A stretch of 64,000 nucleotides of DNA from an uncultured Oscillospiraceae bacterium (GTDB lineage: Bacteria > Bacillota > Clostridia > Oscillospirales > Oscillospiraceae), in assembly GCA_947629775.1 (NCBI GenBank), contig CANRFA010000003.1:48098-112097 (forward strand), given 5' to 3'. Every line of letters begins with the position of its first letter. Position 1 is the stretch's first letter. Under the pieces are notes generated by a model. The model saw only the letters and a list, made by a program, of their open reading frames with translations. It was not told where the DNA came from and searched no databases. A program made the translations under genes and the position numbers. This document shows, piece after piece, positions 16,759 to 54,575 of this stretch.

Positions 16759-16787
16759 AGTATAGCTTCGAATTGGCAATTTGTCAA
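16759..16787 (-). promoter_or_regulatory. Promoter with box A operator overlapping the -35
   Basis: TTGACA-N17-TATACT; TTGGCAATTTGTCAA at 16773-16787; perfect TTGGCATTTTGCCAA at 16829-16843. Confidence 0.7.
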
Positions 16788-16887
16788 TCTGTAATATCAC
16801 AGTTTTCACGCCGTTCTCTCCTGCCTGATTGGCATTTTGCCAATACGGAAAGGCAGGTCTCCCCGCCTTTCCGTATTTCTCCCCCGG

Positions 16888-17067
16888 CTAAAAGCGCCCC
16901 TGCTCCCTGCACCAGTCCTGGTACTGCTCCTCCTCCCTGGCCCGGACGAGCTCCTCCAGCTCCGGCTCGTCCAGCCAGTTCATCTCCTCCTCCGTGCAGT
17001 ACATAGCCAGGTACCTGTACCGGCTGATGTACATGTCCAGCTCCATATCCGTCATCCTGAAGTTCAT
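16888..17067 (-). CDS. Small acidic phage protein (59 aa)
   Basis: Manual translation MNFRMTDMELDMYISRY...EQGRF; GAAAGGGG RBS. Confidence 0.65.
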   Translation of the reverse strand: MNFRMTDMELDMYISRYRYLAMYCTEEEMNWLDEPELEELVRAREEEQYQDWCREQGRF

Positions 17068-17103
17068 GTTACCATTCCCCTTTCTTTCAGACCCTGGGGC
17101 TGC

Positions 17104-17256
17104 TTACGCAGCCCCCGCCGGGATGTTGTAGGTCCAGGTGCAGCCCGCCATGAGGAGCGCCTCCTGGTAGTTGTCCAGGCTCTCCTGGTACTCCAGCTCG
17201 TCCCGTTCGCGCCTGTCCTCCAGGGTGGCTTCCAGGGTGTTGTAATCGTAGTTCAT
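17104..17256 (-). CDS. Small acidic cassette protein
   Basis: MNYDYNTLEATLEDRRERDELEY; conserved hairpin-RBS leader. Confidence 0.7.
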   Translation of the reverse strand: MNYDYNTLEATLEDRRERDELEYQESLDNYQEALLMAGCTWTYNIPAGAA

Positions 17257-17316
17257 TGTTACCTTCCTTTCTGCCCCGGTGGGGCGTCCGTGTTTCCTGT
17301 TTCCTTCGATGATGGG

Positions 17317-17345
17317 ATTATAACTCTGACCGCCCTTCCTGTCAA
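17317..17345 (-). promoter_or_regulatory. Cassette promoter
   Basis: GGGG-TTGACA-N17-TATAAT; box A at 17397-17411. Confidence 0.8.
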
Positions 17346-17444
17346 CCCCAAAAAGCAACTTTTTCAAAAAATTTTCAAGCGCTTATCGCCTTTTCAATGG
17401 CAATCCGCCAACCGCAGGGGTGGGTCCTGCCCGCCGGGGGTATG

Positions 17445-17681
17445 TCACAGGCCCGGCTTCAGCGCTACCCGGATCCCGAAGAACTGGAACCCGGCTCCGT
17501 CCATTTCCTCGCCGAACTCCCTGGCAATGGCGGGCAGGTCCGTTCCCGGCGCTACCAGAATCTCCACCAGGTCCCCTTCTGCCCGTACTCCCGTAAACTC
17601 CGTGGCCGGCGCTATCCACTGTATGTTGCGCACGACGTTTCCTGTATCGAGGAGCTTCTGAGCCAGCTCCATGCCGTTCAT
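17445..17681 (-). CDS. Phage hypothetical protein
   Basis: GGGAGG RBS; ORF track. Confidence 0.65.
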   Translation of the reverse strand: MNGMELAQKLLDTGNVVRNIQWIAPATEFTGVRAEGDLVEILVAPGTDLPAIAREFGEEMDGAGFQFFGIRVALKPGL

Positions 17682-17845
17682 ATCCGTTACCTCCCTGTAT
17701 GGCCGTCCGGTCCGCCGACGCCCCCAGGTCCTGGAGGCCCGGCGGTTCCCGTCTATTCAGCTGTCTGCTGTTTTCGGCCTCTTATGTTTCCACCCCTGGT
17801 CATTATGGCGAAGCCCCGTCGCCGTACAGCGACGGGGTGAAATGC

Positions 17846-18025
17846 TCAGACCCAGGAGATCTCCAGGTACGTGTTCTCGCCCACCTGGGTCCTGTAGTTC
17901 TCCTTGCCTTCCTTTTTCATCGCCCGGACGGCAGCCCGGAGAGCAGGGTCGCCCACTTTTTCGATCGCTTCCTTACGGAGGATCCGGCGGGTTTCCCCGT
18001 TCTCTGTCCAATAGTAACGAACCAT
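17846..18025 (-). CDS. Small basic phage protein (59 aa)
   Basis: Manual translation MVRYYWTENGETRRIL...LEISWV; promoter TTGATA-N17-TAGAAT at 18058-18086. Confidence 0.6.
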   Translation of the reverse strand: MVRYYWTENGETRRILRKEAIEKVGDPALRAAVRAMKKEGKENYRTQVGENTYLEISWV

Positions 18026-18169
18026 CTATGTTTCCATCCTTTCTTTTGTGTTCGTACATTCTACTCCGTTGGAGCTGATTTATCAACCCCATTTAAAAAT
18101 ATGTCTTCCGCCGGCCTGCGCAGCCCCCGCTGTTTTCACGCACCAGGGGCTGTCAGCCTGACGAGGCCA

Positions 18170-18394
18170 TTACATCTCCCGGATGGCTCTGGGGGTATGC
18201 ATACCAGCCTGGAGCATGGCCCTGAGTACTCTGTCCTGGTCTTCCGTGCAGAGGCCAAGGGCTGCCAGGTTCTCCCGGACAGAGCAGGAAAAGCAGACCT
18301 CTTCGCCGGTAACCCGGCCTCTGACGGTAGGACCCCAGGTGTAATAGCCACACCTGGGGCACTGCCAGAAGGTGGAGATGCGAGGTTCAGCCAT
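18170..18394 (-). CDS. Small zinc-finger-like phage protein
   Basis: CPRC...CFSC; coupled to the GGCT gene. Confidence 0.65.
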   Translation of the reverse strand: MAEPRISTFWQCPRCGYYTWGPTVRGRVTGEEVCFSCSVRENLAALGLCTEDQDRVLRAMLQAGMHTPRAIREM

Positions 18395-18851
18395 TGACTG
18401 CCACCCCCAGATCTCTTCCTCTTTCCCCCATATGCTTGAAGGAGTGCTCCACGGCCTTCCAGATGGCGTCCGGGTTGAATCCCATGTTGCGATACCCCTC
18501 CAGGCAGACAGCTACGTATCCCCGGCTGGGCGGTGCGATCTCCCGGTCCTCGTGCATGATATAGGCGAAGCAGTGCAGCTTGCCTACCCGGATATCCTGT
18601 TTGTAGTAGAACCGGGGGTAGCCCTCGTACCGGTCCAGGTTCCGCTCATCCTCCTCCGTAACCTGCCAGATGGCGACCGGAACCCGCCCGTCCCGCTGGC
18701 GCTCGATGGTCAGATAGCTGCCCGTCATGCTCCCCCGGAACCGCAGGGTCCAGCCCCGCAGGGTAGCCCCCCGGATCAGCCTCGCCCCCGGGCACCGGTA
18801 GGCCATCTGCTCCAGGTTCAGGTTGCTTCCGTATGCGATATAGTATTTCAT
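18387..18851 (-). CDS. Gamma-glutamylcyclotransferase (AIG2-like) family protein
   Basis: YIAYGSNL, RCPGA and LDRYEGYP motifs. Confidence 0.88.
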   Translation of the reverse strand: MKYYIAYGSNLNLEQMAYRCPGARLIRGATLRGWTLRFRGSMTGSYLTIERQRDGRVPVAIWQVTEEDERNLDRYEGYPRFYYKQDIRVGKLHCFAYIMHEDREIAPPSRGYVAVCLEGYRNMGFNPDAIWKAVEHSFKHMGERGRDLGVAVNG

Positions 18852-18906
18852 TGTTACCTTCCTTTCTCCCCCGCACCGGGGGCGTCCCTTCGTTTTTGAC
18901 GATGTG

Positions 18907-18935
18907 ATTATAACTCCATCAGCGTTATCTGTCAA
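18907..18935 (-). promoter_or_regulatory. Cassette promoter
   Basis: GGGG-TTGACA-N17-TATAAT; box A at 18985-18999. Confidence 0.8.
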
Positions 18936-19035
18936 CCCCGTTTGTGGATTTTTTGAAAAAAGTTTTTTGCCCTTTCCGTTTCCGCTGGCGGATTGCCAAC
19001 CCGGAGGCGTGATGTCTCCGGGTTGGCAGGGTATC

Positions 19036-19371
19036 TCAGAGGTTCCGGATAGAAGCCATGTAGTTCCGGTTCTTTTCCATGAGGAAGTTGTACCGCTCCC
19101 GGAAGGCGGGCGCCAGGGGGTGGTTGATGCGCTCCAGGGTCCGGGTCATCTTGTACTGGGACAGGTACCAGTAGGCGTAGGAGCCTCCCGTGATGAAATC
19201 CGGGATGATCCAGGTGGAGACGAACTCGCCCGCCGGGTCCGCCTTGGCGAGCCTGTAGAAGTCCCGCTGGTATTGGGTGGTCCCCCGGTAGTTCGTGGAG
19301 CCCCAGGGGCCGTCCGGGTACTCCTTCAACTCCTTGCTCCTCATTTCCCGGCTGATGTCGTAGGCCTTCAT
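19036..19371 (-). CDS. Cassette protein, paralogue of 29706-30065
   Basis: Shares the KMT..LE...HPLAPAFR.RYN motif. Confidence 0.75.
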   Translation of the reverse strand: MKAYDISREMRSKELKEYPDGPWGSTNYRGTTQYQRDFYRLAKADPAGEFVSTWIIPDFITGGSYAYWYLSQYKMTRTLERINHPLAPAFRERYNFLMEKNRNYMASIRNL

Positions 19372-19434
19372 ATTGTTACCGTCCTTTCTGCCCCCTTAAG
19401 GGGCGGTCCGTGTTTCCCTTCGTTTGATAATGGG

Positions 19435-19463
19435 ATTATACCTCTGAAGGCTGTTTCTGTCAA
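19435..19463 (-). promoter_or_regulatory. Cassette promoter
   Basis: TTGACA-N17-TATAAT; box B variant at 19484-19502; perfect box A at 19516-19530. Confidence 0.8.
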
Positions 19464-19657
19464 CCCGGTTCCGTAACTTTTTTCTATGAATCTTTTGCAT
19501 AGGTTTCTACCCGCTTTGGCAACTCGCCAACCCCCGAGGAGATCGCAGGCCTGCCCATCCTCCTGGGATTTATCGGAAAACCGTCCGTGACCCTCCGATA
19601 AACTGCCGGGCCTGGGTGTGACTGCCACCAGGTCCGGAACGATCCAGTACTGGGCCC

Positions 19658-19696
19658 CCGGCGTGCCGACGCTTCCAGATGCTCCCAATCCTGACT
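19658..19696 (+). repeat. 39-bp inverted repeat, left copy
   Basis: 34 of 39 bases match the reverse complement of 26165-26203 by manual alignment. Confidence 0.8.
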
Positions 19697-19879
19697 GATA
19701 CGGTCCATCTCCAGTTCCTGGATGGGGGTTACTGGCAGTATCTCCGCAGACACCCAGGGCTGGACCCCGGCGTCGCAGCGCTTCCAGTATTTGTAACTGA
19801 TTGCAGTTAAACCCTTTTTCTCGGGAGAGGGTCCAGGAATGGGTGTTGATGGGTTATTACCAACCAGAACCCATCGATT

Positions 19880-20465
19880 GGTGATACTGGAGGGATTGTA
19901 AGTAGCACCCATATAGCTCTGTTACTGGAGATATTCCATGATAATACCGGTTATGGGTGTACATGGACAATGTATAATATGGCTCCAGTCATGGGTTATC
20001 CTGGCTTTGATAGGTTTTCAACCCTGTTCTGGAGGTTACTGGACCATATGTAAATCAGATTGGAATATGGGTTGAACTGGAGCCATTGTAAATCAGGTCG
20101 CTTTCTGGGTGACACTGGAGAGAATGGAAATTCGGAAAGAATACGGGTTATGCTGGAGTCAATGGAAATCAGGTGACAATATGGGTAGAGCTGGCCTGAA
20201 TGTCATCAGCCTCCGGATTCGTTTTATCCTGGGTATCCTGGTATTCCAACCCATCAACGGGTGTTTACAGCTATCCTGGGTTTATAACCCATTATCGGAC
20301 CTTTATAGCCGTATTGGGCGTAATACCCATTATCGGGTTCTCGACCCATCACCGGGTGATTATAGCCATTTTGGGTTTGTAACCCATCACCGGGTTCCCA
20401 TGGCTGTTTTGGGTCTGCAACCCATTAACGGGTGATTATAGCCATCTTGGGTTGGATACCCATAT
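19880..20465. repeat. Degenerate 38-bp tandem array
   Basis: CTGGAG-like motif at 19887, 19925, 19963 ... 20229 in 38-bp steps, then about five 38-bp units containing TGGGT-N5-ACCCA. Confidence 0.75.
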
Positions 20466-20582
20466 TGAAAGCGGGTTGGGTGGACTGTCAGAAAGGCCCA
20501 TTTTCAGGGGCGATGGGTGTGAGCGGACGAACTGTAAATCGGACCCATCCAAAAGGCGGATGGGTTTATCTGGACAACGTGT

Positions 20583-20610
20583 AAGGGGGACCCAAGCGGG
20601 TCCCCCTTTT
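20583..20610. terminator. Intrinsic terminator downstream of the amidoligase
   Basis: GGGGGACCC/GGGTCCCCC stem flanked by AA and TTTT. Confidence 0.6.
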
Positions 20611-20645
20611 GTCGTTCCTGTTTTGTCCCCCCCTAGGGGGCTTCC

Positions 20646-21584
20646 TTACATGGAAGCCGCCTGGGTCTGCTGGAGGGAAATGGTGGGCAGGTTCCGGGTC
20701 ATGTGGTACATGGCGTTCTTAAAATCCTCCCCTTCGAACCCGTACCGCCGGAGCCACGCCCGCATGGTATCCCGGGGGCGGTTCGTGGTACAGGGGCTGG
20801 GCGTGGTATTGCGGGCGTATACGCTACCGCATACCATAGCAAGGGAAAACAGCACCCACGCCTTTACCATGCCCGCATGGAGCCCGTTTTTCTTGCCGTT
20901 CCCGGGTTCCTCAAAGTTGAACAGCCGGAACTCAATGGTTCCTTTTGTGAAAAGGGCGTGGAGGTTAACCATATGGTAACGGCTGGGATTGTAGTGTGCG
21001 GTCCGGGGCGTGTAGTGGTAGTTGGCGTACCACAAGTCGCTCACTTCTGCCAGGGACTGGGGGAAGTCCTTGTTCATACCCTCCAGGAAGTCCCTGTCCG
21101 CCCGGGCACAGTAGGTCATCCGGCTTTCCGGAATTCCGATGGCAGTAACTAACAGTTCCTCGTGGCACGCCATCGTATTGGAGAGGTTGCGAATGTCAGT
21201 TGGTCCCAGGTTTTTCCCGTCAATGTGAACGTGTACCCCGCAGCCGTTGGAGGCATAGGACTGCGCCCCCGCGCCCCGGAGGGCACGGATGACTTTCTGG
21301 AGGGTATCCATATCCTGGAGGTACAGGGGAGGCGTTGCCATTTCGCAGCCCCCGCTGTAATCGAGGTCGTGGAGGCTTGCGTCAGACATGAAGCTCCACT
21401 CGCGCCCCTGGGGGTCCGTCACCGCCCACCGGTCGTAGCTGGGTCCCGCATAGCGGACGGTCCCGCCCAACACGTCCCGGGCGACGTTTGCAGCCTTGTC
21501 CCGGGCGATGCCCGTCATTTCAATTTCCACGCCATAGGTGCGGTCCAGCATATCACGCTGGATTTTCATGGAGAGGTTCGTCAT
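20646..21584 (-). CDS. Putative amidoligase (Amidoligase_2 / COOH-NH2 ligase type)
   Basis: YGVEIEM, SDASL, CEMATPPL, CGVHVHI and KGTIEFRLF. Confidence 0.88.
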   Translation of the reverse strand: MTNLSMKIQRDMLDRTYGVEIEMTGIARDKAANVARDVLGGTVRYAGPSYDRWAVTDPQGREWSFMSDASLHDLDYSGGCEMATPPLYLQDMDTLQKVIRALRGAGAQSYASNGCGVHVHIDGKNLGPTDIRNLSNTMACHEELLVTAIGIPESRMTYCARADRDFLEGMNKDFPQSLAEVSDLWYANYHYTPRTAHYNPSRYHMVNLHALFTKGTIEFRLFNFEEPGNGKKNGLHAGMVKAWVLFSLAMVCGSVYARNTTPSPCTTNRPRDTMRAWLRRYGFEGEDFKNAMYHMTRNLPTISLQQTQAASM

Positions 21585-21643
21585 TGTTGCCATTCCTTTC
21601 TGCCCCCGTGGGGGGCGGTCCGTGTTCCCTGTTTACGTTGTAC

Positions 21644-21672
21644 ATTGTAACTCCGTCCGGCTTTCTTGTCAA
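21644..21672 (-). promoter_or_regulatory. Cassette promoter (amidoligase)
   Basis: GGGGG-TTGACA-N17-TACAAT. Confidence 0.8.
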
Positions 21673-21763
21673 CCCCCTTTTATAAGTTTTTTCAACTTTT
21701 TTACCGGAACGTTGACGCCCGCCGGGGTCTTGGGGGGCTTGTGTTCCCCCCTTGACTGTCTAC

Positions 21764-21792
21764 ATTCTAACTCGCACCGCCTTTTCTGTCAA
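21764..21792 (-). promoter_or_regulatory. Second cassette promoter with no ORF of its own
   Basis: TTGACA-N17-TAGAAT; box B at 21811-21831. Confidence 0.75.
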
Positions 21793-23145: not shown

Positions 23146-23189
23146 AGTTTTTCGGTAATCTCCAGCCCGTTGCCAGTTTTCCAGTATCC

Positions 23190-24579: not shown

Positions 24580-24687
24580 CCCTAAATGATAACTTTATTC
24601 ATGCAACTTTTTCATGAATTCCATTACCCGTGGCGTTTTGCCAACCCGTGCCCGTAAAGGCACGGGCTGGCATTTCCTGGAGGGGGC

Positions 24688-25143: not shown

Positions 25144-25172
25144 ATTCTAACTCCGTCCTGCCATTCTGTCAA
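25144..25172 (-). promoter_or_regulatory. Cassette promoter
   Basis: GGGGG-TTGACA-N17-TAGAAT. Confidence 0.8.
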
Positions 25173-25425
25173 CCCCCTTTGCTAACTTTTTTCAAAAAAA
25201 TTTTCATGCGCATGCCCGTTGCCGTTGCCGGAACGGCAACTGACAAAAGCTGGACCGATAGGATCCGCCCTTCCATCCGCCCGTATTTTCCATTTACTTG
25301 GAATGGGTTCAATCTCCATGGACCGATTTTCCATGCCCTTTCGTTGGAAGCGCCTGCCATATATCCAGTAGCTGCCATGGTCCATCTGTCTGTCAGAATC
25401 GGCAGTTTCTGGAGGTCCATTTTCT

Positions 25426-26203: not shown

Positions 26204-26331
26204 CCCCCCAGAAACTCCAGTCCCTGGCAGCCCTGGAGTACATTTGCCCAGGCCCCGGATTCCGTTGGCGTTCTGCCAATATCTGCCTCGATTCATGCAA
26301 AAGATTCATGAATAAAAGTTGGCTTTTGGGG

Positions 26332-27162: not shown

Positions 27163-27270
27163 CAGAATCATCCATCCCGTTGGCGGGTACAGCCCTCCAG
27201 GGATTGCCATCCCGCCATATCCTCCGAGAAGGCGCATGAAAATTTTTTCGAAGAAAGTTGCTTTTTGGGG

Positions 27271-27603: not shown

Positions 27604-27714
27604 AGCCCCCCCAAAGCCACCCCCGGTAACGACCCCGGTATACGCCGGGGGTGGCAATCCGCCATCCATGCCTGAAACTTTCTGAAATTTTTCAAAGAAA
27701 GTTACCTTTTGGAG

Positions 27715-28222: not shown

Positions 28223-28361
28223 GCACTGGATCCCCCGTTCCGTCAGGGAAAGCCCCCTGCCATCCCCGGCACAAGGATACACAGCCCGCCGGGGATGGCA
28301 ATCTGCCAATATCAGCCAGGATCCATGAAAAAGATTCATGAATAAAAGTTAGCGTTTGGGG

Positions 28362-28390: not shown

Positions 28391-28453
28391 TCCATTGTAA
28401 ACGAAAGGGAAACAAACGGACCGCCCCAACGGGCAGAAAGGCAAGGTAAAACC

Positions 28454-29442: not shown

Positions 29443-29610
29443 TCGAAGGTATCCCCTTCCAGGGGCCGGGACCCATTTCCTGGGGGGCCAGGGACGCCGG
29501 CCCCCACTCCGGAAAATGGCGGGGCCTGTTGCGGGCCCGGATGTTGCCGTTTTGCCATTCATCCCAGAAACCTATGCAAAAGATTCATGAATGAAAGTTG
29601 CTTTTTGGGG

Positions 29611-29705: not shown

Positions 29706-30065
29706 ATGGACAGGAACATCTACCCCATCTGGAACGCAATGGCTACCCGCAGTGACGAGACCCAGGGGAACATGTACGGGCGGTACGAAGGGACCCCCCA
29801 GTTCCTGGAGGACTTCCGCCACCTTGCGGAAGTGGACCTCAAGGAGGGCGACGGCTTCTACGTGAAAACGTGGATGCAGCCCGCCATCCCCGGGCTGTGG
29901 ACCCTGGACCAGCTCAAAATGACCCACATCCTGGAGGGCATGGGACACCCCCTCGCCCCCGCCTTCCGGCAGCGCTACAACGAAACCCTGGACCTCCTCC
30001 GGGTCCGGCTCCGGGAATACCGGAGCCTCCTGGAGTCCCGGCGCAGCCGGAAGCACGCAGCCTGA
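29706..30065 (+). CDS. Cassette protein, paralogue of 19036-19371
   Basis: Shared HPLAPAFR.RYN motif. Confidence 0.75.
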   Translation: MDRNIYPIWNAMATRSDETQGNMYGRYEGTPQFLEDFRHLAEVDLKEGDGFYVKTWMQPAIPGLWTLDQLKMTHILEGMGHPLAPAFRQRYNETLDLLRVRLREYRSLLESRRSRKHAA

Positions 30066-30377
30066 GCCAATACCCCCCCGCCCGGCGGAGCCCTGCCGGG
30101 CGGGGTTGCCGTTTTGCCATCGTGGATGCAGATTCATGCAGAAGATTCATGGATTTAATTTACATTCGGGGGATACTCAGCCAGATCCAGGAAGGTGGAG
30201 GATCCTCCGATAATTCCCATCCGCCGGCAGATGGGTTATGTTTCGTGTACTGTTAAATGCTTCCAGCGCTGCGACGCCGGCCCCCCTGGCTCCTGTTTTC
30301 CCCGAAACTGCATGATGGGCTGTCGGGGCGGGCAGGCGGGCATGAAAAAAGGGAGGTGGATGTCCACCTCCCCGTTA

Positions 30378-30638
30378 TCAGACAGCCTCCTGAAGGCTGA
30401 TGGGTCCCCGCTCCTGGTCAGCCCGGAACGCCGGGATGGAGTCAGCCAGGGACTTTTCCACGCCGGGTGGGAGATACTTGGAGATTCTCCCAACCAGGCA
30501 GGGGTAGGAATACGACCGCTTCTCCCCCAAAGCCTCCTGGATGACGTTCAGGCACTCGTCTTTGCTGTACAAGCGGCTGATATCCTCCTCGCTCAGGTAC
30601 ACGTGCAGGTTCAGGGTTACGGAATAGCACTCTTTCAT
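30378..30638 (-). CDS. Phage hypothetical protein
   Basis: ORF track; AAGGAAGG RBS. Confidence 0.55.
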   Translation of the reverse strand: MKECYSVTLNLHVYLSEEDISRLYSKDECLNVIQEALGEKRSYSYPCLVGRISKYLPPGVEKSLADSIPAFRADQERGPISLQEAV

Positions 30639-30674
30639 GTGATACCTTCCTTTCCTCCGCAGTGCGGACCCTGC

Positions 30675-31325
30675 TCAGGTCCGCACGCTGATTGTGTAAT
30701 CCTCCTCGAAGGTGATTCCGGGAATCCGGACAGTGCCCCGGGACTGCCGGATGAGTTTCATGACGGCAGCGGTGTCTACCGGGCGAATCTCGACCCCGTT
30801 CACAGAGGTGGGGACCAGGCTGGGATCCACGGAAACAATACGCCAGGTCTTCGTATGCCGGATCCCTTCCGCCTCCGCCGGACGGACAGCGGTGGGCTGC
30901 ATACCCTCCAGCACCTCCGCCTGCGTTTCCGCCCAGTCTGCGGTAGCGTTATCGCCCCGCTCTCGTGCCATCGCAGCCTCCTGGCGGGCCTTCTCCGCAG
31001 CCTTGAGGGCTTCCATGCGGACCGCCTCCTGGCGGGCCCTGGCAGCCTCCTGGCGGGCCCTGGTAAATGCCCCCATCTTCGCTTTGATGGTCTTCTCCGC
31101 CTCCGCAAACGGACCCATCATCTGCTTCCTGCGCTCCATGACTGCCTGATAAGCCGTCCAGGCAGCGCTGCGCAGGGGCTCCCAGTACTCTTCCGCCTTT
31201 TTCCCCGCTGCCTTTACCTGCCTCGCAAGCTCCCCCGCTGCCCGGTACTCCTCGTCGTTGGTAACCTGCATGGCTCCAACCTGCGCCAGCAGAGCCTCCT
31301 GCGCTCCCATCGTGGCCATCTCCAC
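30675..31325 (-). CDS. Phage coiled-coil protein
   Basis: Ala/Glu/Arg-rich helical sequence; AAGGAGG RBS. Confidence 0.7.
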   Translation of the reverse strand: MEMATMGAQEALLAQVGAMQVTNDEEYRAAGELARQVKAAGKKAEEYWEPLRSAAWTAYQAVMERRKQMMGPFAEAEKTIKAKMGAFTRARQEAARARQEAVRMEALKAAEKARQEAAMARERGDNATADWAETQAEVLEGMQPTAVRPAEAEGIRHTKTWRIVSVDPSLVPTSVNGVEIRPVDTAAVMKLIRQSRGTVRIPGITFEEDYTISVRT

Positions 31326-31378
31326 TGCGGATGCCTCCTTTCAGAATGTGCCCTCGTTACCTCCGGGGCGGGCCGTTC

Positions 31379-31537
31379 TCAGTTGTGGGTGGCGTTGAAG
31401 TTCTCGATCGCCCACCGGTTGCCGGTTGCGTACACCGCCCGGCGGGTCCGCTCATACACGCTCCCCGTTGTCCGTTTCAGCCTCCTGCGCTCCGGCTCCT
31501 CCTGCTCCTTCCGGTCCTTGTCGCTGTACTTCTTCAT
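31379..31537 (-). CDS. Small phage protein (52 aa)
   Basis: Manual translation ...VYERTRRAVYATGNRWAIENFNATHN; promoter TTGACA-N17-TATACT at 31582-31610. Confidence 0.65.
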   Translation of the reverse strand: MKKYSDKDRKEQEEPERRRLKRTTGSVYERTRRAVYATGNRWAIENFNATHN

Positions 31538-31678
31538 ATCAGGGTCCTCCTTTGTCTGTGTCCCCCCTTCAGGGTGATGACAGTATAACTCTGAAGGCCG
31601 TTTGTGTCAACCCCAAATGTAAACTTTTTTATCGGAAATTTTTGTGCGAACTCACAATGATGATGGCATTCTGCCAAT

Positions 31679-32499: not shown

Positions 32500-32708
32500 T
32501 GTTACCTTTCCTTTCTGCCCTGTTGGGCTCTGTCTTCTGTTGCCTGTCCCTCATTGCCCCTATAGATTACCTCTGATTGTCTTTCTTGTCAACCCCCTTT
32601 TGTAAGTTTATAAGAAAAATTTTTCAGCTCCATCAACGTCACATTGCCGTTCCGCCATCTGCGCATAAAAAAAGGCCCGCAGCCTGTAACAGCTGCGGGC
32701 TTCTGCGT

Positions 32709-33155
32709 CTACGCTTCCCGGTACTGGGCGGTGAAGGCGGTGGCGATCCCACGGGAAACGGGCAGCACCTGCTCCTCGCCTTCCACGAAGAAGTACCGGC
32801 CTTCCCGGTCCAGGTACAGCTCCGTTCCCGGCTCATCGTTGGTCGCAGAGGAGGCCACCAGGGTAGCCTTGCCGGTATCGTAGGTCACTCCACGGACCCG
32901 CTTTTTGATCCGGTTCGCTTCCTCCTTGGGCGTATCCTCTGCGCCGTCCCCGTCTTTCCCGCTGGCTACAGGGACGAGGGCGACCTCGTAGCCAATCTTC
33001 CCAACCGCCCGCACAAAATCGTCAAAGCGGAAGTTGTTTTCCGCCAGCTTCCTGGAGAGCTTCTGAGGCGTCCATCCCAGAATGCAGGCAAAATCCGCAT
33101 ACTTCATGCCCTTGCTTTTCAGCGCAGGCCCCACCAGATCCTTGGCAGTTACCAC
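32709..33155 (-). CDS. XRE-like HTH protein with a C-terminal YDT domain
   Basis: MKYADFACILGWTPQKLSRKL looks like an HTH; GTG start after AGGAG; TTGACA at 33224-33229. Confidence 0.6.
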   Translation of the reverse strand: MVTAKDLVGPALKSKGMKYADFACILGWTPQKLSRKLAENNFRFDDFVRAVGKIGYEVALVPVASGKDGDGAEDTPKEEANRIKKRVRGVTYDTGKATLVASSATNDEPGTELYLDREGRYFFVEGEEQVLPVSRGIATAFTAQYREA

Positions 33156-33839: not shown

Positions 33840-33981
33840 TGTTTCCCCTTTCTGAACCCTGAGTGTGAATCCGCCCCAGTTCCGTTTGATGCCATGATTA
33901 TAGCTCTGAATGGGCAATCTGTCAACCCCGGATGATAAAAAGATGAACTTTTTTATCGGAAATATCCTCCGGGCGCTAACT

Positions 33982-45556: not shown

Positions 45557-45559
45557 AGC

Positions 45560-47734: not shown

Positions 47735-47749
47735 ACGGCATCTCCCCCT

Positions 47750-49161: not shown

Positions 49162-49221
49162 CTCCTGTCTCCAGGGGAAGCGCCTCCAGGAGCCAGATTG
49201 ATCCCCGCCCTTTTCAAGTCA

Positions 49222-49674
49222 TTACCCCCTCTTCCAGCTGTCTGAATCAGGCGGGCCAGCCATGCTGCCCGTACTGCCCCAACCGCCACGGTTCGTATTT
49301 CCAAGGCTGTCCACCGGCTGGAAGGTTATGCCCGGGGCCTTCTTCAGCACCTGAAACTGGCAGATCCGGGCCCCCTTGGGGACGTCCGTATCCCGGATGG
49401 CGTAGGCCGGAAACTTCCAGATATCCCCGTCTCCGCAGAAGTCGGATTCGAAGATGCCTATGGAATTAGCCTGCAGCAGCCCCCAGCGCTTGCACGTGGA
49501 GCTGCGTGGAGCCATGATGGCGTAATAGCCGTCCGGTAACTGCATGCTTACTCCAAGGTCGATCATGCAAACCTCGCCCTTGCGCATATGTGCCTCTTCA
49601 GCGGTGCTCAGATCCACCCACTCTCCGTGGCGTTCGGGAAGCGGGTTGCCATGCGTGTTGATTCTCACCTTCAT
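49222..49674 (-). CDS. dut: Trimeric dUTPase
   Basis: APRSS, NSIGIFESDFCG, RICQF and RGGWGSTG. Confidence 0.85.
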   Translation of the reverse strand: MKVRINTHGNPLPERHGEWVDLSTAEEAHMRKGEVCMIDLGVSMQLPDGYYAIMAPRSSTCKRWGLLQANSIGIFESDFCGDGDIWKFPAYAIRDTDVPKGARICQFQVLKKAPGITFQPVDSLGNTNRGGWGSTGSMAGPPDSDSWKRG

Positions 49675-49711
49675 GGCGGACCCCTGCTCATCCTTCGCTC
49701 TGGCGCTCAAC

Positions 49712-50002
49712 TCACTCATTCTGCTTCCCCTCGCTCTTCATTTCGGAAACCAGCTCCCCTCCGCAGGCTGCGTAGCCCGCAAGATCGATAAAGCTGTCCA
49801 GCGTAGCGGTTCCGGACTGGATCCGGCCTATCTTCAGCAGCCCCATCATGACCGCTACATCAACGGGGGTAAACGGTATCCCCTTATAGGCCTCCCACAG
49901 TCTCCCAATCGCCGTAAAGTTGTCTTCCGGCTTCCCGTAATCGGTCTGGCGCTGACCGCAGACGCAGCCATACGCCGTCTCCAGAATTTCCTTTCTCTTC
50001 AT
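49712..50002 (-). CDS. Phage protein (DUF6378-like)
   Basis: RQTDYGKPEDNF, LLKIGR and DSFIDLAGYAACG. Confidence 0.75.
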   Translation of the reverse strand: MKRKEILETAYGCVCGQRQTDYGKPEDNFTAIGRLWEAYKGIPFTPVDVAVMMGLLKIGRIQSGTATLDSFIDLAGYAACGGELVSEMKSEGKQNE

Positions 50003-50364
50003 CCGGGATTCTCCTTTTCATTCCAGCTCAGGCGCACAGCTCGATCGTCCCAGTATTCGTCCGCTCCAACCTTGCGACAGTCTGATCCGAAATACGCTAT
50101 GCGCCAGGCCGGGTTCTCGTTGACTGCCTCGAACTCCAACCCCCAGCTTTGGCAGGCCTCCACGGCCTCCTCCAGCAGATCCCCCTCCCTGCACGTCCAC
50201 AGGACCAGGCAGCTCCCAGCCCGCTGCTCGGCCAGCGCCCTGCGGATGACCGGCCAGTTGGGAGGCCCAACCTCCGGAAACTGCTCCCGGCACAGACACC
50301 CGTCAAAATCAATCGCAATCACCCGTCTCAATCCGTCCATTCCGCCTTTGATGCCTTCGGTCAT
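49999..50364 (-). CDS. HAD-superfamily hydrolase (phage type)
   Basis: IAIDFDGCL, LWTCR and KVGADEYWDD. Confidence 0.75.
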   Translation of the reverse strand: MTEGIKGGMDGLRRVIAIDFDGCLCREQFPEVGPPNWPVIRRALAEQRAGSCLVLWTCREGDLLEEAVEACQSWGLEFEAVNENPAWRIAYFGSDCRKVGADEYWDDRAVRLSWNEKENPG

Positions 50365-51092
50365 TTCTTCCCTCTCCCCTGCTGGTCGTCAAAACAGTAG
50401 GCGTATCCATCCGGCCAGTAGGGATCCGCTACACGCCCCTTGCACCTCCTGCTGATGGATGTGCTGGATGCGTAATTCGCCTTGGCTGCCTCCTTGATCG
50501 AAGGATACCTGGCTACCACGTTATGATCCCTGTCCATCTTCCGCACCGGCCTCCTCCAGGCATTCTTCTTTATCACCGGAGCTGCCTGCGCTTTTGGCCC
50601 TCTCTTTTCCTCGTCGTAGGTGAAGGTGTATCCACTGGGCCAAAAAGGGTCTACAACCTGACCTTTGCATTTCCTCCATACATTGGAAGCTGAAATGCCG
50701 TTGGCGTCCGCAGCTGCCTGAATGGATTTATAGAAGGCGAGGATGTTCCCTTCCCGATCGACTTTCCTCACGGCCCGCCTGTGTCTGTTCATCCATCTGC
50801 ATGGAGTGTTCAGCGGGATCAGCTCCAGGTTCCGCAAGGAGTTGTCGGTGCAGTCCTCGCTCCGGTGTATGATCTTGTAGCCCGGCTTCCGTCCGCCCAG
50901 GTAGGCGTCCGCCATCAGCCCGGCCACGGTCACTCTTACGCTCCCCTTATTGGGCAGCAGCAGATTGACAACCGCCCGCCCGGAATAGACGTGCTGTCCC
51001 AGCGGGATCCACACACCGTCCACCTGTTTCTCCACAGTTCCGGCTGTACTGATCCGGTAAGGAATCCGGTAGCCCGGGATCATTCTGTACAT
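50361..51092 (-). CDS. NUMOD4/HNH-like protein with two NUMOD1-like repeats
   Basis: YRISTAG, HRSEDCTDNSLRNL, FYKSIQAAA and YPSIKEAA. Confidence 0.68.
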   Translation of the reverse strand: MYRMIPGYRIPYRISTAGTVEKQVDGVWIPLGQHVYSGRAVVNLLLPNKGSVRVTVAGLMADAYLGGRKPGYKIIHRSEDCTDNSLRNLELIPLNTPCRWMNRHRRAVRKVDREGNILAFYKSIQAAADANGISASNVWRKCKGQVVDPFWPSGYTFTYDEEKRGPKAQAAPVIKKNAWRRPVRKMDRDHNVVARYPSIKEAAKANYASSTSISRRCKGRVADPYWPDGYAYCFDDQQGRGKK

Positions 51093-51964
51093 TCCGGGGC
51101 CTCCTGAACGAAGGCAAACCACGTTCCGTCCCTGAACGGCTTGGGCTGTGGCAGCTTCGCCCTTTCCGCAATCTCCCTGATCGAATGGTGGGAATCTCTC
51201 CCGGCCTCCGTCAGAGTCCTGTAGACCCTGAGCAGATTCCCGTCCCTGTCGTACTTCGCCACCGGCCTGCAATGTTTCTCCCGGCTTGCCTCCCGTACCT
51301 CGTCTTTTGATGCGAGGCGGAGATTGACCAGTCTGCAGTCTTTCGGATCCCCGTTGATGGGCCAGGCCTGAAACCCTGCCGGGATCTCGCCCCTGTAAGC
51401 CTGATAGATCAGGTTCCTCACCGCAACAGGGCTGGATCGCCCGCTGGAGTCCTGAATGCAGACATACTCGACCGGCGATTCAGACCTCGTAAACCTGTTC
51501 TTGCGCTCCCAGTTCCCTTCCTTATATACCTCCACCTCTCCAGCTTCGTTTACCCTGACGGGATACCTGGTCCCCTGAAGTATATTCCACCCAGGTTCGT
51601 TATCATCTGGAAAAGTGATGTTCACCAGTCTGTGCCTGCGCAGGCCATTGATATGGCCCAGCTCCTGAAAGGTCATGATCTTCAGGTTCTCCAGGCGGTC
51701 GTCCGTTTTGTCCCCGTTCAGGTGAACCGCTACGCACCCTCTGGGGATTCTGCCAAGAAAGGCGGTTGCCACCAGCGAAGATACCGATTTTGCGATCTTC
51801 TCTCCTCCATTGGTATACAGGTGGACGTGCCTGCGCCCCTTGCTGAGATAGTACCGGGCCTGACTCCACTCACCATCTGCCAGCTGTTCCACGTCTCCGG
51901 CGCTGCTTACACGGATGGGAATCCGGAGTCCGTCAATCTGTCTCCATCTGATCTGCATATACAA
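51080..51964 (-). CDS. Double NUMOD4/HNH-like unit plus NUMOD1
   Basis: HLNGDKTDDRLENL, PINGDPKDCRLVNL and YRTLTEAG. Confidence 0.7.
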   Translation of the reverse strand: MYMQIRWRQIDGLRIPIRVSSAGDVEQLADGEWSQARYYLSKGRRHVHLYTNGGEKIAKSVSSLVATAFLGRIPRGCVAVHLNGDKTDDRLENLKIMTFQELGHINGLRRHRLVNITFPDDNEPGWNILQGTRYPVRVNEAGEVEVYKEGNWERKNRFTRSESPVEYVCIQDSSGRSSPVAVRNLIYQAYRGEIPAGFQAWPINGDPKDCRLVNLRLASKDEVREASREKHCRPVAKYDRDGNLLRVYRTLTEAGRDSHHSIREIAERAKLPQPKPFRDGTWFAFVQEAPECTE

Positions 51965-52439
51965 ATCGCTTCCCTTTCAATGATGTGCGCCATTTCCCAG
52001 CGCACCAGCCTGACACGCTTCTTTCATGAACCCCGTAGGCCCTGGCAGCGGATCGGACGGACTCAAACCGCTCTATCGTTCCATCCTCGCTGCACACGCA
52101 CACCGGCCTGGTTGGCCTCCTCCGCCCGCCCGTCCGCCCACACTCGGCGGATACCGCAAACCTGAGATTGCAAAGCCTCTGATCCTCCTTGTTCCCATTG
52201 ACGTGCAGGACATAAGTGGCAGGAGGGATCTTCCCAATGAATCCCTCCATCACCAGCCTGCCACATGGAACAGAAACGCTTTTCCCCCGCTTACCCTTCA
52301 GGGATACGCAAGCCCCTCCGTTTCTGTCCCTGTGGACGGCGGGCCTGCTCCAGGCCCCGTTGATATACCGCTCAATCACACCATCCGCATTCACCCGCAC
52401 CGGATAGGCAAACCGGTTAATCTGCCTCCACGGATCCAA
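51933..52439 (-). CDS. NUMOD4/HNH-like protein plus NUMOD1
   Basis: HVNGNKEDQRLCNL and FESVRSAA; start uncertain. Confidence 0.62.
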   Translation of the reverse strand: MDPWRQINRFAYPVRVNADGVIERYINGAWSRPAVHRDRNGGACVSLKGKRGKSVSVPCGRLVMEGFIGKIPPATYVLHVNGNKEDQRLCNLRFAVSAECGRTGGRRRPTRPVCVCSEDGTIERFESVRSAARAYGVHERSVSGWCAGKWRTSLKGKRFVYADQMETD

Positions 52440-52453
52440 AGCTGCCCGCCCCC

Positions 52454-52609
52454 CTACGCATTGACGAGCAGTCTGTCTGCTTCGAGCAGCTCTACAATCC
52501 GCAGGCAAAGTTCCATGCCAGCCTTCAGGCCCGGACTCAGATTGTGCTGGACCAGCCATGGCTCCACCGCATCCTGATAGATCGCCTGCATAAGGGTGAT
52601 ATCAGACAT
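52454..52609 (-). CDS. Small protein, paralogue of 53194-53382
   Basis: Manual translation ..IYQDAVEPWLVQH..ELCLRIVELLE. Confidence 0.58.
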   Translation of the reverse strand: MSDITLMQAIYQDAVEPWLVQHNLSPGLKAGMELCLRIVELLEADRLLVNA

Positions 52610-52615
52610 GCCCGT

Positions 52616-53197
52616 TCACCGCCGTTCATCCAGGTAGGAGGCCTGCATGTCTGCGATATGGAGGAACAGGGCCAGAGGGAACTCCTCGTACACGTGCCCC
52701 AGGTTGCGGAAGCCTCCCTTGACGGAATCGTCAAAGGCCCCCATGTGCCACCGGATCGCCAGCGCCTCCTCCGCAGACAGGTGGATATACCGTTCAATGA
52801 GCCACAGGGACTTTTCGCCATGCCCCAGAGGGCAGTCGTCCCAGAAGCTCCAGGTCTGTTCCCCATTGACCAGCCTGGGCCGGTATACCCCAACCTTGCA
52901 GACATCGTGGAGCAGCCCGCAGATCGCAAGGCTCTCCCTGCTCACAGCGAATATTCCAGACGGGGCTCCCGCCAGAAGGATCCGCTCCTGGTCAATCAGC
53001 TCCACGAGCCTGTTGTACACGTGCAGGCTGTGTTCGCACAGGCCCCCTTCATAGGCCCCGTGGAATTTCGTACTGGCCGGGGAGGAGAAGAAATCGCTCC
53101 CCTCCAGCCAGCTCAGGAGCCTGTCAGACCCCTCCCTGTGGATGGCGCTGCCGTACGCCTCCACGAAGGCTTCCCTGTTCTCCGCTACGCTTTTCAT
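52616..53197 (-). CDS. HD-domain phosphohydrolase
   Basis: PASTKFHG..GGLCEHS and LLHDVCK. Confidence 0.85.
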   Translation of the reverse strand: MKSVAENREAFVEAYGSAIHREGSDRLLSWLEGSDFFSSPASTKFHGAYEGGLCEHSLHVYNRLVELIDQERILLAGAPSGIFAVSRESLAICGLLHDVCKVGVYRPRLVNGEQTWSFWDDCPLGHGEKSLWLIERYIHLSAEEALAIRWHMGAFDDSVKGGFRNLGHVYEEFPLALFLHIADMQASYLDERR

Positions 53198-53382
53198 ACG
53201 GCCTCCCTTTCTGCTGCGGAACCCGTGCCTCCCGCAGCCAAGGCTTCTTCATCCTCAAGCGCTTCCAGAATCCGGACGCAGAACTCCACTCCGTCCCTCC
53301 TGCTTACCAGCCACTCGTGCTTTTCCAGCCATGGCTCCAGCAGATCCTGATACAGCCTGATGCCTGTCGCCAGATCCGCCAT
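53194..53382 (-). CDS. Small protein, paralogue of 52454-52609
   Basis: LYQDLLEPWLEKH..EFCVRILEALE. Confidence 0.58.
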   Translation of the reverse strand: MADLATGIRLYQDLLEPWLEKHEWLVSRRDGVEFCVRILEALEDEEALAAGGTGSAAEREAV

Positions 53383-53540
53383 TACGCATCCCACTCCTCG
53401 TTGAGAAGGGGCAGGGACTCAAACCAGCGTTCGAGGCCCGGGAACAGAGGAAGGATCCGGTCCATGGCATCCGCTGCCAGCCCCATAGCCAAAAAGACAC
53501 CGTTGATCACAATCACGTATACCAGAAACTCCGCCAGCAT
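53382..53540 (-). CDS. Small single-TM protein (52 aa)
   Basis: Manual translation MLAEFLVYVIVINGVFLAMG...; AAAGGAG RBS. Confidence 0.55.
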   Translation of the reverse strand: MLAEFLVYVIVINGVFLAMGLAADAMDRILPLFPGLERWFESLPLLNEEWDA

Positions 53541-53618
53541 AACCCCGTTCTCCTTTCATCGTTGCCGTTGGCAATCTGCCAACATCGATACCTGGCTCCC
53601 CTCGCCGGGGACAAGTGT

Positions 53619-53647
53619 ATTCTACATCTGATTTGGCAAGCTGTCAA
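53619..53647 (-). promoter_or_regulatory. Promoter with two box A operators
   Basis: TTGACA-N17-TAGAAT; TTGGCAAGCTGTCAA over the -35 and TTGGCAATCTGCCAA at 53568-53582. Confidence 0.72.
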
Positions 53648-53752
53648 CGCTGATTTAGAACTTTCTTCAACTTTTTTCAGAATCTTTCCGTCTGGCGATA
53701 AGTCCCGGTGCAAACGAAAAGCCCGCCCTGACAACCAGAGCGGGCAGTCTGC

Positions 53753-54505
53753 TCAGATATCAAGTTCCATCAGGACGGGGCAGCCGTACACAGCAACGGC
53801 CCCTTCCAGCACCTCCACACTGACGATCCGGGAGGCCAGCGCCTCCGTCACATAGAAGGAGGAGAACCGAAAGCCAAAGTCCTTCTCCTTCATGACCCTG
53901 GTCTTCCAGTAGGTGTAGGCCTTCCCGTGAGGGTGCGTGTACCGGTAGGCATCGACATAGCCCTGCCCCAGCAGGTCCCTCAGCTTCTCCCTCTCCTCCG
54001 GGAGGTATCCGGGTTGCCTGGCGCAGTACCTGGGATCCTCCAGATCGTCATCCTCCAGGCACACCAGCATGGCCCCGCCCATGATCACCGGCTTCTTCCT
54101 CTGCAGGGCAGCTGCGTAATCGTTCAGCTTCGCCATCCAGCGCAGCTTGTCCAGCACCTTGCCCAGCGCCCCGCTGGGGGTGGAGAAGTTCACCAGGTAA
54201 AACTCCTCATACTCCAGGGTCGTGACCCTTACCGTATCCGGCTTCTTCTCCGTCCCCATCCCGTACTGTACGGACAGAGGGGCCTCCCTGACCAGCGTAA
54301 CGGTGTTGCGATACGTACACAGCTCCTCGTCATTTACGTTCCAGTACTGGAGATAGCCATCCCCCAGGAGCTTTTCGGACCTCTCCCGCTTCAGCTTAGG
54401 CTTCTGGAAGAATACGGCGTCGAAGTCCCCCCTGGTGAATACCTCCAGCTCCCCACGCTTCTTCCTGGCGTTCAGCCCGCTCAGGTCCCACGTCATCAGC
54501 TTCAT
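53753..54505 (-). CDS. Exonuclease III/AP endonuclease homologue with degenerate catalytic motifs
   Basis: Overall Xth pattern (..SVQYG, RVTTLEY, GYVDAYRYTHP..YTYW) with the active-site motifs altered. Confidence 0.75.
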   Translation of the reverse strand: MKLMTWDLSGLNARKKRGELEVFTRGDFDAVFFQKPKLKRERSEKLLGDGYLQYWNVNDEELCTYRNTVTLVREAPLSVQYGMGTEKKPDTVRVTTLEYEEFYLVNFSTPSGALGKVLDKLRWMAKLNDYAAALQRKKPVIMGGAMLVCLEDDDLEDPRYCARQPGYLPEEREKLRDLLGQGYVDAYRYTHPHGKAYTYWKTRVMKEKDFGFRFSSFYVTEALASRIVSVEVLEGAVAVYGCPVLMELDI

Positions 54506-54546
54506 GCCTGTTCATCTCTCCTTCACCCACGTGGATGGATACCAGC

Positions 54547-54575
54547 ATGATACTACTGAATTGCCAGTTTGTCAA
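54547..54575 (-). promoter_or_regulatory. Promoter with a box A variant over the -35
   Basis: TTGACA-N17-TATCAT; TTGCCAGTTTGTCAA. Confidence 0.6.

Follow-up and report, generated by a model that had tools for sequence, protein, structure and literature searches.

Dispersed copies of a TTGGC-N5-GCCAA dyad in a Brigit-like Clostridia prophage are probably operators of its CI/Cro-type switch proteins

Which protein reads the short palindrome TTGGC-N5-GCCAA, copies of which are scattered along a large Clostridia prophage, and what would it do there? The DNA in question is a stretch of 64,000 nucleotides, referred to here as the window, from an uncultured Oscillospiraceae bacterium (assembly GCA_947629775.1, 204 contigs, 3.07 Mb; contig CANRFA010000003.1, abbreviated C3, window C3:48098-112097). 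Beyond ∼16 kb of the window, as far as the contig end, G+C content is ∼0.57 as compared with 0.65–0.69 in the host, and this low-G+C region of ∼104 kb is a temperate myovirus prophage of the Brigit-like kind. An initial annotation of the window proposed that one dimeric repressor binds the dyad and, by occluding the −35, silences both a series of early gene cassettes and the operons between 34 and 54 kb. Our analysis favours, with a probability of about 0.68, the reading that the dyad is the operator family of the prophage's own CI-like and Cro-like switch proteins, which have helix–turn–helix (HTH) domains of the XRE type and are encoded to the right of the window; this assignment is drawn from site positions and from homologous switch modules in related prophages. 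Positions beyond the window are given in its numbering.

The dyad belongs to the prophage and not to its host. The initial annotation listed four perfect copies (16829, 19516, 26265 and 53568), and all of its coordinates proved correct; dinucleotide-preserving shuffles of the window gave an expectation of 0.11, and none of 100 shuffles reached four. With at most one mismatch there are 12 matches against 2.2 expected, including those at 16773, 17397, 18985, 24630, 28295, 31663 and 53633. Of the copies described as ‘near-perfect’, those at 27651, 29544 and 30106 have two mismatches, as do the TTG(G/C)C-N5-GTCAA copies at 33911 and 54561. Five sites had been overlooked: three weak ones centred at −94 or −95 of their promoters (25225, 27204 and 32644), one over a −35 (25158) and a perfect copy at 117342. 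In the whole 3.07-Mb genome we found five perfect copies, every one of them in the prophage part of C3 and none in 2.97 Mb of host DNA, and copies with exactly one mismatch number 10 in the 104 kb of phage and 16 in the 2.97 Mb of host, an 18-fold difference in density. A scan with a position weight matrix (PWM), the check that had been suggested, returned 16 phage sites and one host site at ≥16 bits; the matrix was trained on the phage sites themselves, and independent information lies only in the counts from host and relatives. When all 5-mer dyads with gaps of 0–10 were enumerated in the phage without bias, TTGGC-N5-GCCAA ranked seventh (5 observed, 0.10 expected), behind dyads from satellite arrays and A/T runs. 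No strong site falls in the structural block at 63–103 kb, and a match at 59647, inside a coding frame, is probably due to chance. The eukaryotic and adenoviral NFI site has the identical string TTGGC-N5-GCCAA, a coincidence of sequence that implies no bacterial counterpart.

In total there are ∼20 sites, spread across 37 kb with one more 64 kb away. Their full consensus is TTGGCAA-t-TTGCCAA, and the best copy, at 117342, is a perfect 7+1+7 palindrome, TTGGCAATTTGCCAA. The information profile is dyad-symmetric, with 1.5–1.7 bits at positions 2, 3 and 5 and at their mirrors 11, 13 and 14: T2, G3 and C5 and the mirror positions are near-invariant, while the central three positions are free (∼0.4 bits). 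Half-site centres lie 10 bp apart, about one helical turn, and this spacing and the symmetric profile fit a dimeric HTH protein. At position 4 of the half-site G, C and A are all accepted, so that the TTGAC of a −35 hexamer can serve as a half-site. A σ54 promoter was considered and rejected, since the motif reads GG-N6-GC, 4 bp short of the GG-N10-GC of TGGCAC-N5-TTGC.

The sites fall into three positional classes; for this, promoters were aligned on the −35 hexamer and the transcription start was set 7 nt past the −10. Class (i) sites, centred at about −28, cover −35 to −21 of TTGACA-17-TAnnnT promoters. Four strong ones lie on near-consensus σA promoters, P16787, P33925, P53647 and P54575, all on the minus strand, and a weak one was found at 25158:

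16773–16787, TTGGCAATTTGTCAA: candidate operator over the −35 and spacer of P16787 (minus strand, TTGACA-17-TATACT), centre about −28, PWM 22.3
25158–25172, CTGCCATTCTGTCAA: weak site of similar placement, over the −35 of P25172 (minus strand), PWM 12.1
33911–33925, TGGGCAATCTGTCAA: candidate operator over the −35 and spacer of P33925 (minus strand, TTGACA-17-TATAAT)
53633–53647, TTGGCAAGCTGTCAA: candidate operator over the −35 and spacer of P53647 (minus strand), head of the 53.5-to-34 kb operon
54561–54575, TTGCCAGTTTGTCAA: candidate operator over the −35 and spacer of P54575 (minus strand), upstream of an ExoIII-like gene

Read on the minus strand, these promoters have the form TTGACA-nnn-TG(C/G)C(A/C)A-N8-TA(T/G)(A/C)(A/C)T with a spacer of 17 bp, the TTGAC of the −35 being one half-site. 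The initial annotation had recognized this arrangement at 16773, 33911, 53633 and 54561, and all four fit TTGACA with a 17-bp spacer. They score 16–22 bits, a range whose lower limit of 16 is reached by 0 of 691 host TTGACA 15-mers. P53647 is the sole near-consensus promoter that we found ahead of the minus-strand genes running from 53.5 down to 34 kb. The idea of −35 occlusion by one dimeric repressor thus stands for four promoters, that of the 34–53.5 kb operon included, but does not extend to the cassettes, whose sites are centred at −92 to −95. A leader of ∼350 nt (16388–16752) comes after P16787; it has no convincing open reading frame (ORF) before a 62-aa gene at 16391–16203 and contains a strong hairpin, GGGTGGGAAGTACCTTCCCACC.

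Class (iii) sites lie in transcribed DNA:

53568–53582: perfect copy in the transcribed leader of P53647 (minus strand), centre about +37, upstream of the first ORF; candidate roadblock or auxiliary operator
30106–30120: orphan copy after the last rightward cassette gene; hairpin, site and AT-rich element are present, GATACT replaces TTGACA and there is no promoter
117342, TTGGCAATTTGCCAA: perfect copy between the hairpin after cro and the gene for the phrog_6499 regulator, 59 bp before the regulator start

The orphan cassette head at 30106–30190 is the remains of a promoter that has decayed, or else a stop module without a promoter, placed where rightward and leftward genes run towards each other.

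Class (ii) sites belong to the cassettes, of which ∼17 lie between 16 and 34 kb. Each cassette has a near-consensus σA promoter, GGGGTTGACAG-N12-GAGTTAKAAT, after an AT-rich UP-like element, and downstream of it a conserved 5′ leader, a small hairpin, a strong ribosome-binding site and a small gene. Twelve cassette sites have their centres at −92 to −95, and a thirteenth, at 16829, stands at −84 of P16787:

16829–16843, TTGGCATTTTGCCAA: perfect, 56 bp upstream of the P16787 operator, centre about −84, directly after a hairpin of 11–14 bp
17397–17411: centre −94 of P17345 (minus strand)
18985–18999: centre −92 of P18935 (minus strand)
19516–19530: perfect, centre −95 of P19463 (minus strand)
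24630–24644: centre −93 of P24579 (minus strand)
25225–25239, TTGCCGGAACGGCAA: weak, centre −95 of P25172 (minus strand), first leftward cassette
26265–26279: perfect, centre −95 of P26332 (plus strand), first rightward cassette
27204–27218, TTGCCATCCCGCCAT: weak, centre −95 of P27271 (plus strand)
27651–27665: centre −92 of P27715 (plus strand)
28295–28309: centre −95 of P28362 (plus strand)
29544–29558, TTGCCGTTTTGCCAT: centre −95 of P29611 (plus strand)
31663–31677: centre −95 of P31610 (minus strand)
32644–32658: weak, centre −94 of P32592 (minus strand, TTGACA-17-TAATCT), 16 nt past a canonical terminator

These sites begin 64–67 bp upstream of the −35, with the AT-rich element in between, and form the last conserved block at the upstream edge of cassette homology; neither the 12–20 nt between site and AT-rich element nor any DNA upstream of the site can be aligned among cassettes. 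In nearly every case a GC-rich hairpin (−13 to −31 kcal/mol) ends 0–5 nt ahead of the site. No run of T follows these hairpins (TTGGC... does), our terminator scan does not call them, and we rejected intrinsic terminators as an identity for the element, the hairpins being present and the U-tract not. Neighbouring sites are 0.45–1.6 kb apart. In each divergent series the first cassette (with 25225 in one, 26265 in the other) has the site but no same-strand gene upstream, and the site therefore belongs to the promoter module. A core operator hidden in the cassette −35 and spacer was ruled out, as these regions score at background (mean PWM −4.5, against −5.8 at host TTGACA sites). Because the sites are centred at −92 to −95 and the motif is missing from the cassette −35, occlusion of the −35 cannot be how the cassettes are controlled: judged by position, the class (ii) sites are too far upstream to occlude cassette promoters directly.

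A protein-binding site is not the only thing that an inverted repeat can be. The palindrome might act as a nucleic-acid hairpin, as part of a terminator, an RNA processing signal or a cruciform, since its 5-bp arms enclose a 5-nt loop and it always stands beside a larger hairpin. We consider this very improbable. Only six of the 20 copies are fully self-complementary; the 4/12 pair is not Watson–Crick in eight of 20 (in five of 20 not even G–U) and the 1/15 pair in 10 of 20, while pairs 2/14, 3/13 and 5/11 show no covariation, two being invariant and the third broken once, and one copy has a double change. Moreover, four copies sit in promoter cores and are absent from the transcript of that promoter, and there is no U-tract. 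It is scarcely more credible that a host transcription factor binds the site, or that the site is a relic with no function, carried along as cassettes were duplicated. The regions upstream of the cassettes are indeed clearly homologous copies, but the 2.97 Mb of host DNA has no perfect site and one high-scoring one, the site has been kept while its flanks diverged, copies outside the cassettes exist at 53568, 53633, 54561, 33911 and 117342, and related prophages have a different dyad at the homologous position.

The candidate binders lie mostly at the far end of the prophage, where a cI/cro pair adjoins a gene for a large serine integrase (117.4–119.8 kb):

117779–118195, plus strand: CI-like XRE-HTH protein (HTH_3 profile match), 138 aa
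117381–117623, minus strand, divergent from cI: Cro-like XRE-HTH protein (HTH_3), 80 aa
116777–117283 (L110:15874-16380), minus strand: phrog_6499 ‘transcriptional regulator’, 168 aa

The initial annotation had foreseen a CI-like gene beyond the window, and the divergent 138-aa and 80-aa genes bear this out. Its other suggestion, an HTH protein encoded at 32709–33155, fared less well: this 148-aa protein has no Pfam HTH match and matches only a PHROG family of unknown function. No match to a LexA-like peptidase domain was found in the 138-aa CI, nor a relative of solved structure for the phrog_6499 regulator, which is 40–53% identical across these prophages and has invariant C80, E83 and C84 in a YCxxECPIG motif.

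Faecalibacterium phage FP_Brigit (NC_047909) has a homologous module, with CI 25%, Cro 40% and regulator 44.5% identical to those of our prophage, in a genome ordered as integrase, cI, cro, regulator, exonucleases, RecT, replication, ParB-like, packaging, head, tail, lysis and small genes. Its operators are not described in the paper that reports it (PMC5883640). Enumeration of all 5-mer dyads in FP_Brigit puts TTACC-N5-GGTAA first, with six observed against 0.03 expected and the same 15-bp geometry. Dyads lie at 2976–2990, 3228–3242, 13027, 38831, 51350, 51387, 52391 and 57568. One occupies the spacer of Pcro (TTGACAT-ATACCATATTGGTAA-GCTATAAT) and another lies at the 3′ end of cro, with 59 bp left to the regulator gene; four more promoters (13027, 38831, 51350 and 57568) have their spacers filled in the same way, two of them standing at the head of the region of small genes that follows the lysis genes, and at three promoters a dyad falls at +15 to +40.

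Scanning a profile of the regulator over one genome per species (185,579 species) yielded 75 Clostridia prophage loci, to which metagenome assemblies added four. In at least 12 of these, including all the closer ones, Pcro has the form TTGACA-[dyad]-TAnAAT and the same dyad recurs 60–115 bp before the regulator gene; loci L121, L124, L126 and L130–L134 are among those with both. The perfect site at 117342 in our prophage occupies exactly this pre-regulator position. The relatives' dyads vary, most being TTACC-N4/5-GGTAA, others TTATCC-N4-GGTTAA, TTCTCA-N5-TGAGAA, GCAAAT-N3-ATTTGC and ATTTCC-N4-GGAAAT. No locus in 1.29 Mb of related prophage DNA has a cluster of TTGGC-type sites, no dyad is enriched in MT835491 or MT836754, which encode distant homologues of the regulator, and a word-based search with the CI protein found only itself.

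It is this variation that points to a binder. The recognition helix of CI reads T(I/L/V)SRY in every TTACC phage and TLSKI in our prophage, and that of Cro reads xY(x)(K/N)KE in TTACC phages and SYCLKE here. The lysine-for-arginine change in CI aligns with what we take to be the position of Gln33 in 434 repressor, which contacts a base. By contrast, the regulator of L133 has a helix, VSVSSLADYELG, nearly the same as Brigit's, ISVSSLADYELG, although the L133 dyad (TTCTCA-N5-TGAGAA) is unrelated and its CI and Cro differ. As far as these alignments go, the dyad appears to co-vary with the recognition helices of CI and Cro and not with that of the regulator, and it is because the dyad tracks the former, while the comparison of L133 with Brigit separates it from the latter, that we infer CI and Cro to be the binders.

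The alternative is that another phage regulator, the 168-aa phrog_6499 protein or the 148-aa protein, binds the dyad as the operator of an early-to-middle switch, CI and Cro using a different repeat. The dyad stands directly upstream of the regulator gene here, as a perfect site, and in all relatives; Brigit and L121, both TTACC phages, have identical regulator helices; our prophage's own switch region is without a full TTGGC-type site and contains another inverted repeat; and the 148-aa protein is encoded in the unit downstream of the class (i) promoter P33925. Nevertheless, the near-identity of the L133 and Brigit regulator helices in spite of unrelated dyads, the filling of the Pcro spacer by the relatives' dyad, which is the classical CI/Cro position, and the absence of a detectable HTH family match in the 148-aa protein make this alternative unlikely.

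Several observations weigh against assigning the dyad to CI and Cro. First, the spacer of the prophage's own Pcro retains only the left half-site (TTGACA-ATTGGC-GGGACAGCAGC), with a whole-site PWM score of 1.6, and the cI–cro intergenic region (117623–117779) has no full site, unlike its relatives. What it does have is the inverted repeat TTCAAGAA-N12-TTCTTGAA, just upstream of the Pcro −35 and overlapping the putative PcI −35, and this could be the true CI/Cro operator. It resembles the AT-rich TTCATGAA elements (‘family B’) upstream of the cassette promoters, and may be a second operator family or just UP-element-like DNA. Second, the co-variation comes from about a dozen phages, most of them with one specificity, TTACC. 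Third, the cassette copies are homologous repeats, so that their number overstates the independent evidence. Fourth, the assignment leaves unexplained how, or whether, the cassettes are silenced, because their promoters are without a core operator. Finally, the distance from site to −35 is not constant but varies by 3 bp, and the two-site pairs at P16787 and P53647 are 56 and 65 bp apart, and their helical phases differ.

If CI and Cro are nevertheless the binders, each would presumably bind as a dimer, with one HTH per half-site of 5–7 bp. At P16787, P33925, P53647 and P54575 a dimer over −35 to −21 would exclude σA RNA polymerase, and in a lysogen this occlusion would keep the 53.5-to-34 kb operon silent, together with three shorter units. 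The class (iii) sites (the orphan at 30106, that at +37 of P53647 and the one separating cro from the regulator gene) would probably be auxiliary operators or elongation roadblocks; the core site of P53647 together with that at +37 resembles a pair of primary and auxiliary operators. Class (ii) sites, which stand out as conserved at the far border of cassette upstream regions that have diverged elsewhere, may be auxiliary or anchoring operators that act through cooperative or looped repressor complexes, raising the local repressor concentration or bridging neighbouring sites, or they may be insulators between strong tandem promoters.

This last idea can be taken further for the upstream and intragenic copies, without conflict with CI/Cro repression at class (i) promoters: a repressor bound after a U-tract-less hairpin could act in the manner of a stoperator, as a roadblock or insulator that stops read-through between tandem promoters, so that each cassette would be a unit of its own and might, as a moron, go on being expressed in the lysogen. 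We think it possible, if on the doubtful side. The hairpins that end 0–5 nt before the site in nearly all cassettes, the lack of a downstream promoter at 30106 and 117342, the site at +37 of P53647 and the Brigit dyads at +15 to +40 of three promoters all agree with it, and there is a precedent in the repressor of phage L5 and other cluster A phages, which stops elongation at intergenic stoperators (PMC9283540). It accords less well with 25225 and 26265, where there is no upstream same-strand gene to be stopped and the site travels with the promoter module. In addition, a palindrome has no orientation, whereas L5 stoperators are orientation-dependent, and a roadblock would leave the promoter that follows it unsilenced.

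The sharp separation of two positional classes, at −28 and at −92 to −95, raises another option, a protein with a dual role that represses over the −35 and activates or anti-silences from around −93 to −95, holding cassettes and long operons in opposite states. The distance of the upstream sites is like that of class I sites, since CRP can activate when centred at −92.5. In phi29, p4 represses A2b but activates A3, depending on where it is bound. We regard a p4-like scheme as improbable here. The cassette promoters are consensus TTGACA-17-TATAAT with UP-like elements and should need no activator, the distance between site and −35 varies by 3 bp, or ∼100° of helical phase, and Brigit has no such upstream sites.

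A more speculative proposal, which we hold to be unlikely, is that the U-tract-less GC hairpin abutting an operator at the cassette edge constitutes a new regulatory module, either a conditional, protein-assisted terminator or insulator, or a repressor-bridged loop. If it were true, one CI would both occlude lytic operons and partition ∼17 consensus promoters into insulated units, and the expression state of the cassette units would differ between lysogeny and infection.

Taken as CI/Cro-type operators, the sites would have much in common with those of lambda, 434, P22 and TP901-1: a dyad for dimeric XRE-HTH proteins (binding being, in our case, predicted from sequence) encoded by divergent genes next to an integrase, with copies over lytic promoter cores and sites of varying strength. 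TP901-1 CI has operators OL, OR and OD, and a copy downstream of the first lytic gene here recalls OD (PMC11149083). In those systems, however, three to six sites lie in the switch, whereas our prophage has ∼20 dispersed copies and one 64 kb away, only a half-site in the switch, 13 copies at −84 to −95 and a CI with no LexA-like peptidase match. The resemblance to FP_Brigit is closer, covering the integrase–cI–cro–regulator–recombination module, the myovirus gene order, the 15-bp 5-N5-5 dyad and the placing of copies in the spacers of promoters, a short way downstream of promoters and in the gap from cro to the phrog_6499 regulator gene. The two phages differ in that the half-site is TTACC in Brigit and TTGGC here, that the Brigit dyad fills the spacer after TTGAC while here TTGAC itself is a half-site, and that Brigit has neither the copies at −95 nor the battery of promoter cassettes.

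For the dispersed layout, regulons of other large prophages offer analogies. SPbeta, a Firmicute prophage of more than 100 kb, holds dispersed promoters through MrpR, which acts at the 15-bp SPBRE in ∼10 intergenic or promoter regions, and SPBRE had been recognized in silico long before its binder was known (PMC10516654). MrpR has a fold like that of tyrosine recombinases and not an XRE HTH, and its sites are unrelated in sequence and differently placed on promoters. Phage L5 and its cluster A relatives have more than 20 repressor sites genome-wide, a number of which lie at promoters, while many others occupy short gaps between genes and stop elongation there; the sites are asymmetric 13-mers that are bound by a monomer and work in a single orientation (PMC9283540). 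L5 may serve as a model for the copies at +37, at 30106 and at 117342, and also for the cassette sites that follow a hairpin. In form our sites differ, being palindromic and mostly upstream sites linked to promoters instead of lying within operons, and a cluster A stoperator in the strict sense (asymmetric, monomer-bound, oriented) was rejected for the palindrome and for a spacer that occurs in both orientations relative to the gene. By membership, then, the dyad would seem to be a CI/Cro-type XRE operator family, at positions homologous to those in Brigit-like switches, and by analogy it may work like the dispersed-operator regulons of SPbeta MrpR and L5 gp71. Four features appear to be new: specificity for TTGGC, a −35 that doubles as a half-site, the scale of ∼20 sites and the fixed, hairpin-abutting position at −95 in 12–13 cassettes.

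To our knowledge, there has been essentially no characterization of how temperate phages of the dominant gut Clostridia (Oscillospiraceae, Faecalibacterium and their relatives) regulate their switches. The present analysis gives a candidate pair of operator and repressor for one 104-kb prophage, and a rule that seems to hold for Brigit-like modules, namely that one and the same dyad occupies both the Pcro spacer and the gap that separates cro from the conserved regulator gene. Differences in specificity from phage to phage would predict immunity groups, and the prevalence of TTACC-N4/5-GGTAA would predict groups that are shared. To judge by its sites, a large prophage could hold a 19-kb accessory operon with a single operator-bearing promoter, and the hairpin-side operator at −95 in 12–13 cassettes could reveal looping, insulation or dual regulation.

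Close relatives of the prophage DNA are lacking in the phage, plasmid, IMG/VR and metagenome collections and in 400 genomes of the host family; the only other copies are contigs at least 99.8% identical. Megablast of 16–36 kb against plasmids and phages gave no match, and a protein-based search of IMG/VR found no close relatives of the amidoligase and the ExoIII-like protein. The only close matches of the latter were four contigs ≥99.8% identical, whose accession numbers suggest a single study and which are uninformative for footprinting; the next best were cellular ExoIII proteins at 37% identity. The cassette promoter pattern GGGGTTGACA-N13-GAGTTANAAT has no match in the 400 host-family genomes and 14 and 80 single matches in IMG/VR and in JGI/ENA metagenomes, respectively, none with an upstream TTGGC-type site; these look like chance.

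The remaining gene content is that of a myovirus inserted in host DNA; genes without annotated proteins are crude ORF calls made in this analysis:

Left 16 kb of the window: host genes for FecCD, a MiaB-like radical-SAM enzyme, a SpoVK-like AAA protein, PPDK and a GH78 rhamnosidase
Prophage, inside the window: endolysin (Phage_lysozyme2, CHAP and SH3 domains), PAPS-reductase-like protein, MT-A70 methylase, HNH endonuclease, Thy1-like protein and amidoligase
53753–54505, downstream of P54575 (minus strand): ExoIII-like gene
Prophage, past the window: tail fibre/decoration, baseplate, tape measure, sheath, major head, protease, portal and large terminase
Far (right) end of the prophage: RecT, PD-(D/E)XK nuclease, SLT-domain protein, phrog_6499 regulator, Cro-like and CI-like proteins and large serine integrase

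At the leftmost prophage edge, a near-consensus promoter (TTGACA-17-TATACT, 15902–15930, minus strand) is directed into the adjoining host-side ORF at 15527–15826. The 460-aa ORF at 30195–31577 (plus strand), with its high content of R, P, L and S, seems to be spurious; it is probably the minus strand that has the real genes here, downstream of P31610.

An integron attC-like site was rejected as an account of the cassettes, every one of which has its own promoter. No family matches were found for their small proteins. Ten of 15 small proteins of the cassettes and their neighbourhood are strongly acidic, with isoelectric points of 4.1–5.0, and two more have values of 5.3–5.4, a profile typical of early anti-defence or host-takeover proteins. 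By visual comparison of the sequences, the products of 19036–19371 and 29706–30065 look like paralogues. The cassette leader, for example at 28391–28453, has the form ACGGACCGCCCC-N3-5-GGGGCAGAAAGGAAGGTAACA-ATG, and in most cassettes a small GC hairpin, which may be a translational or stability element, lies directly before the ribosome-binding site.

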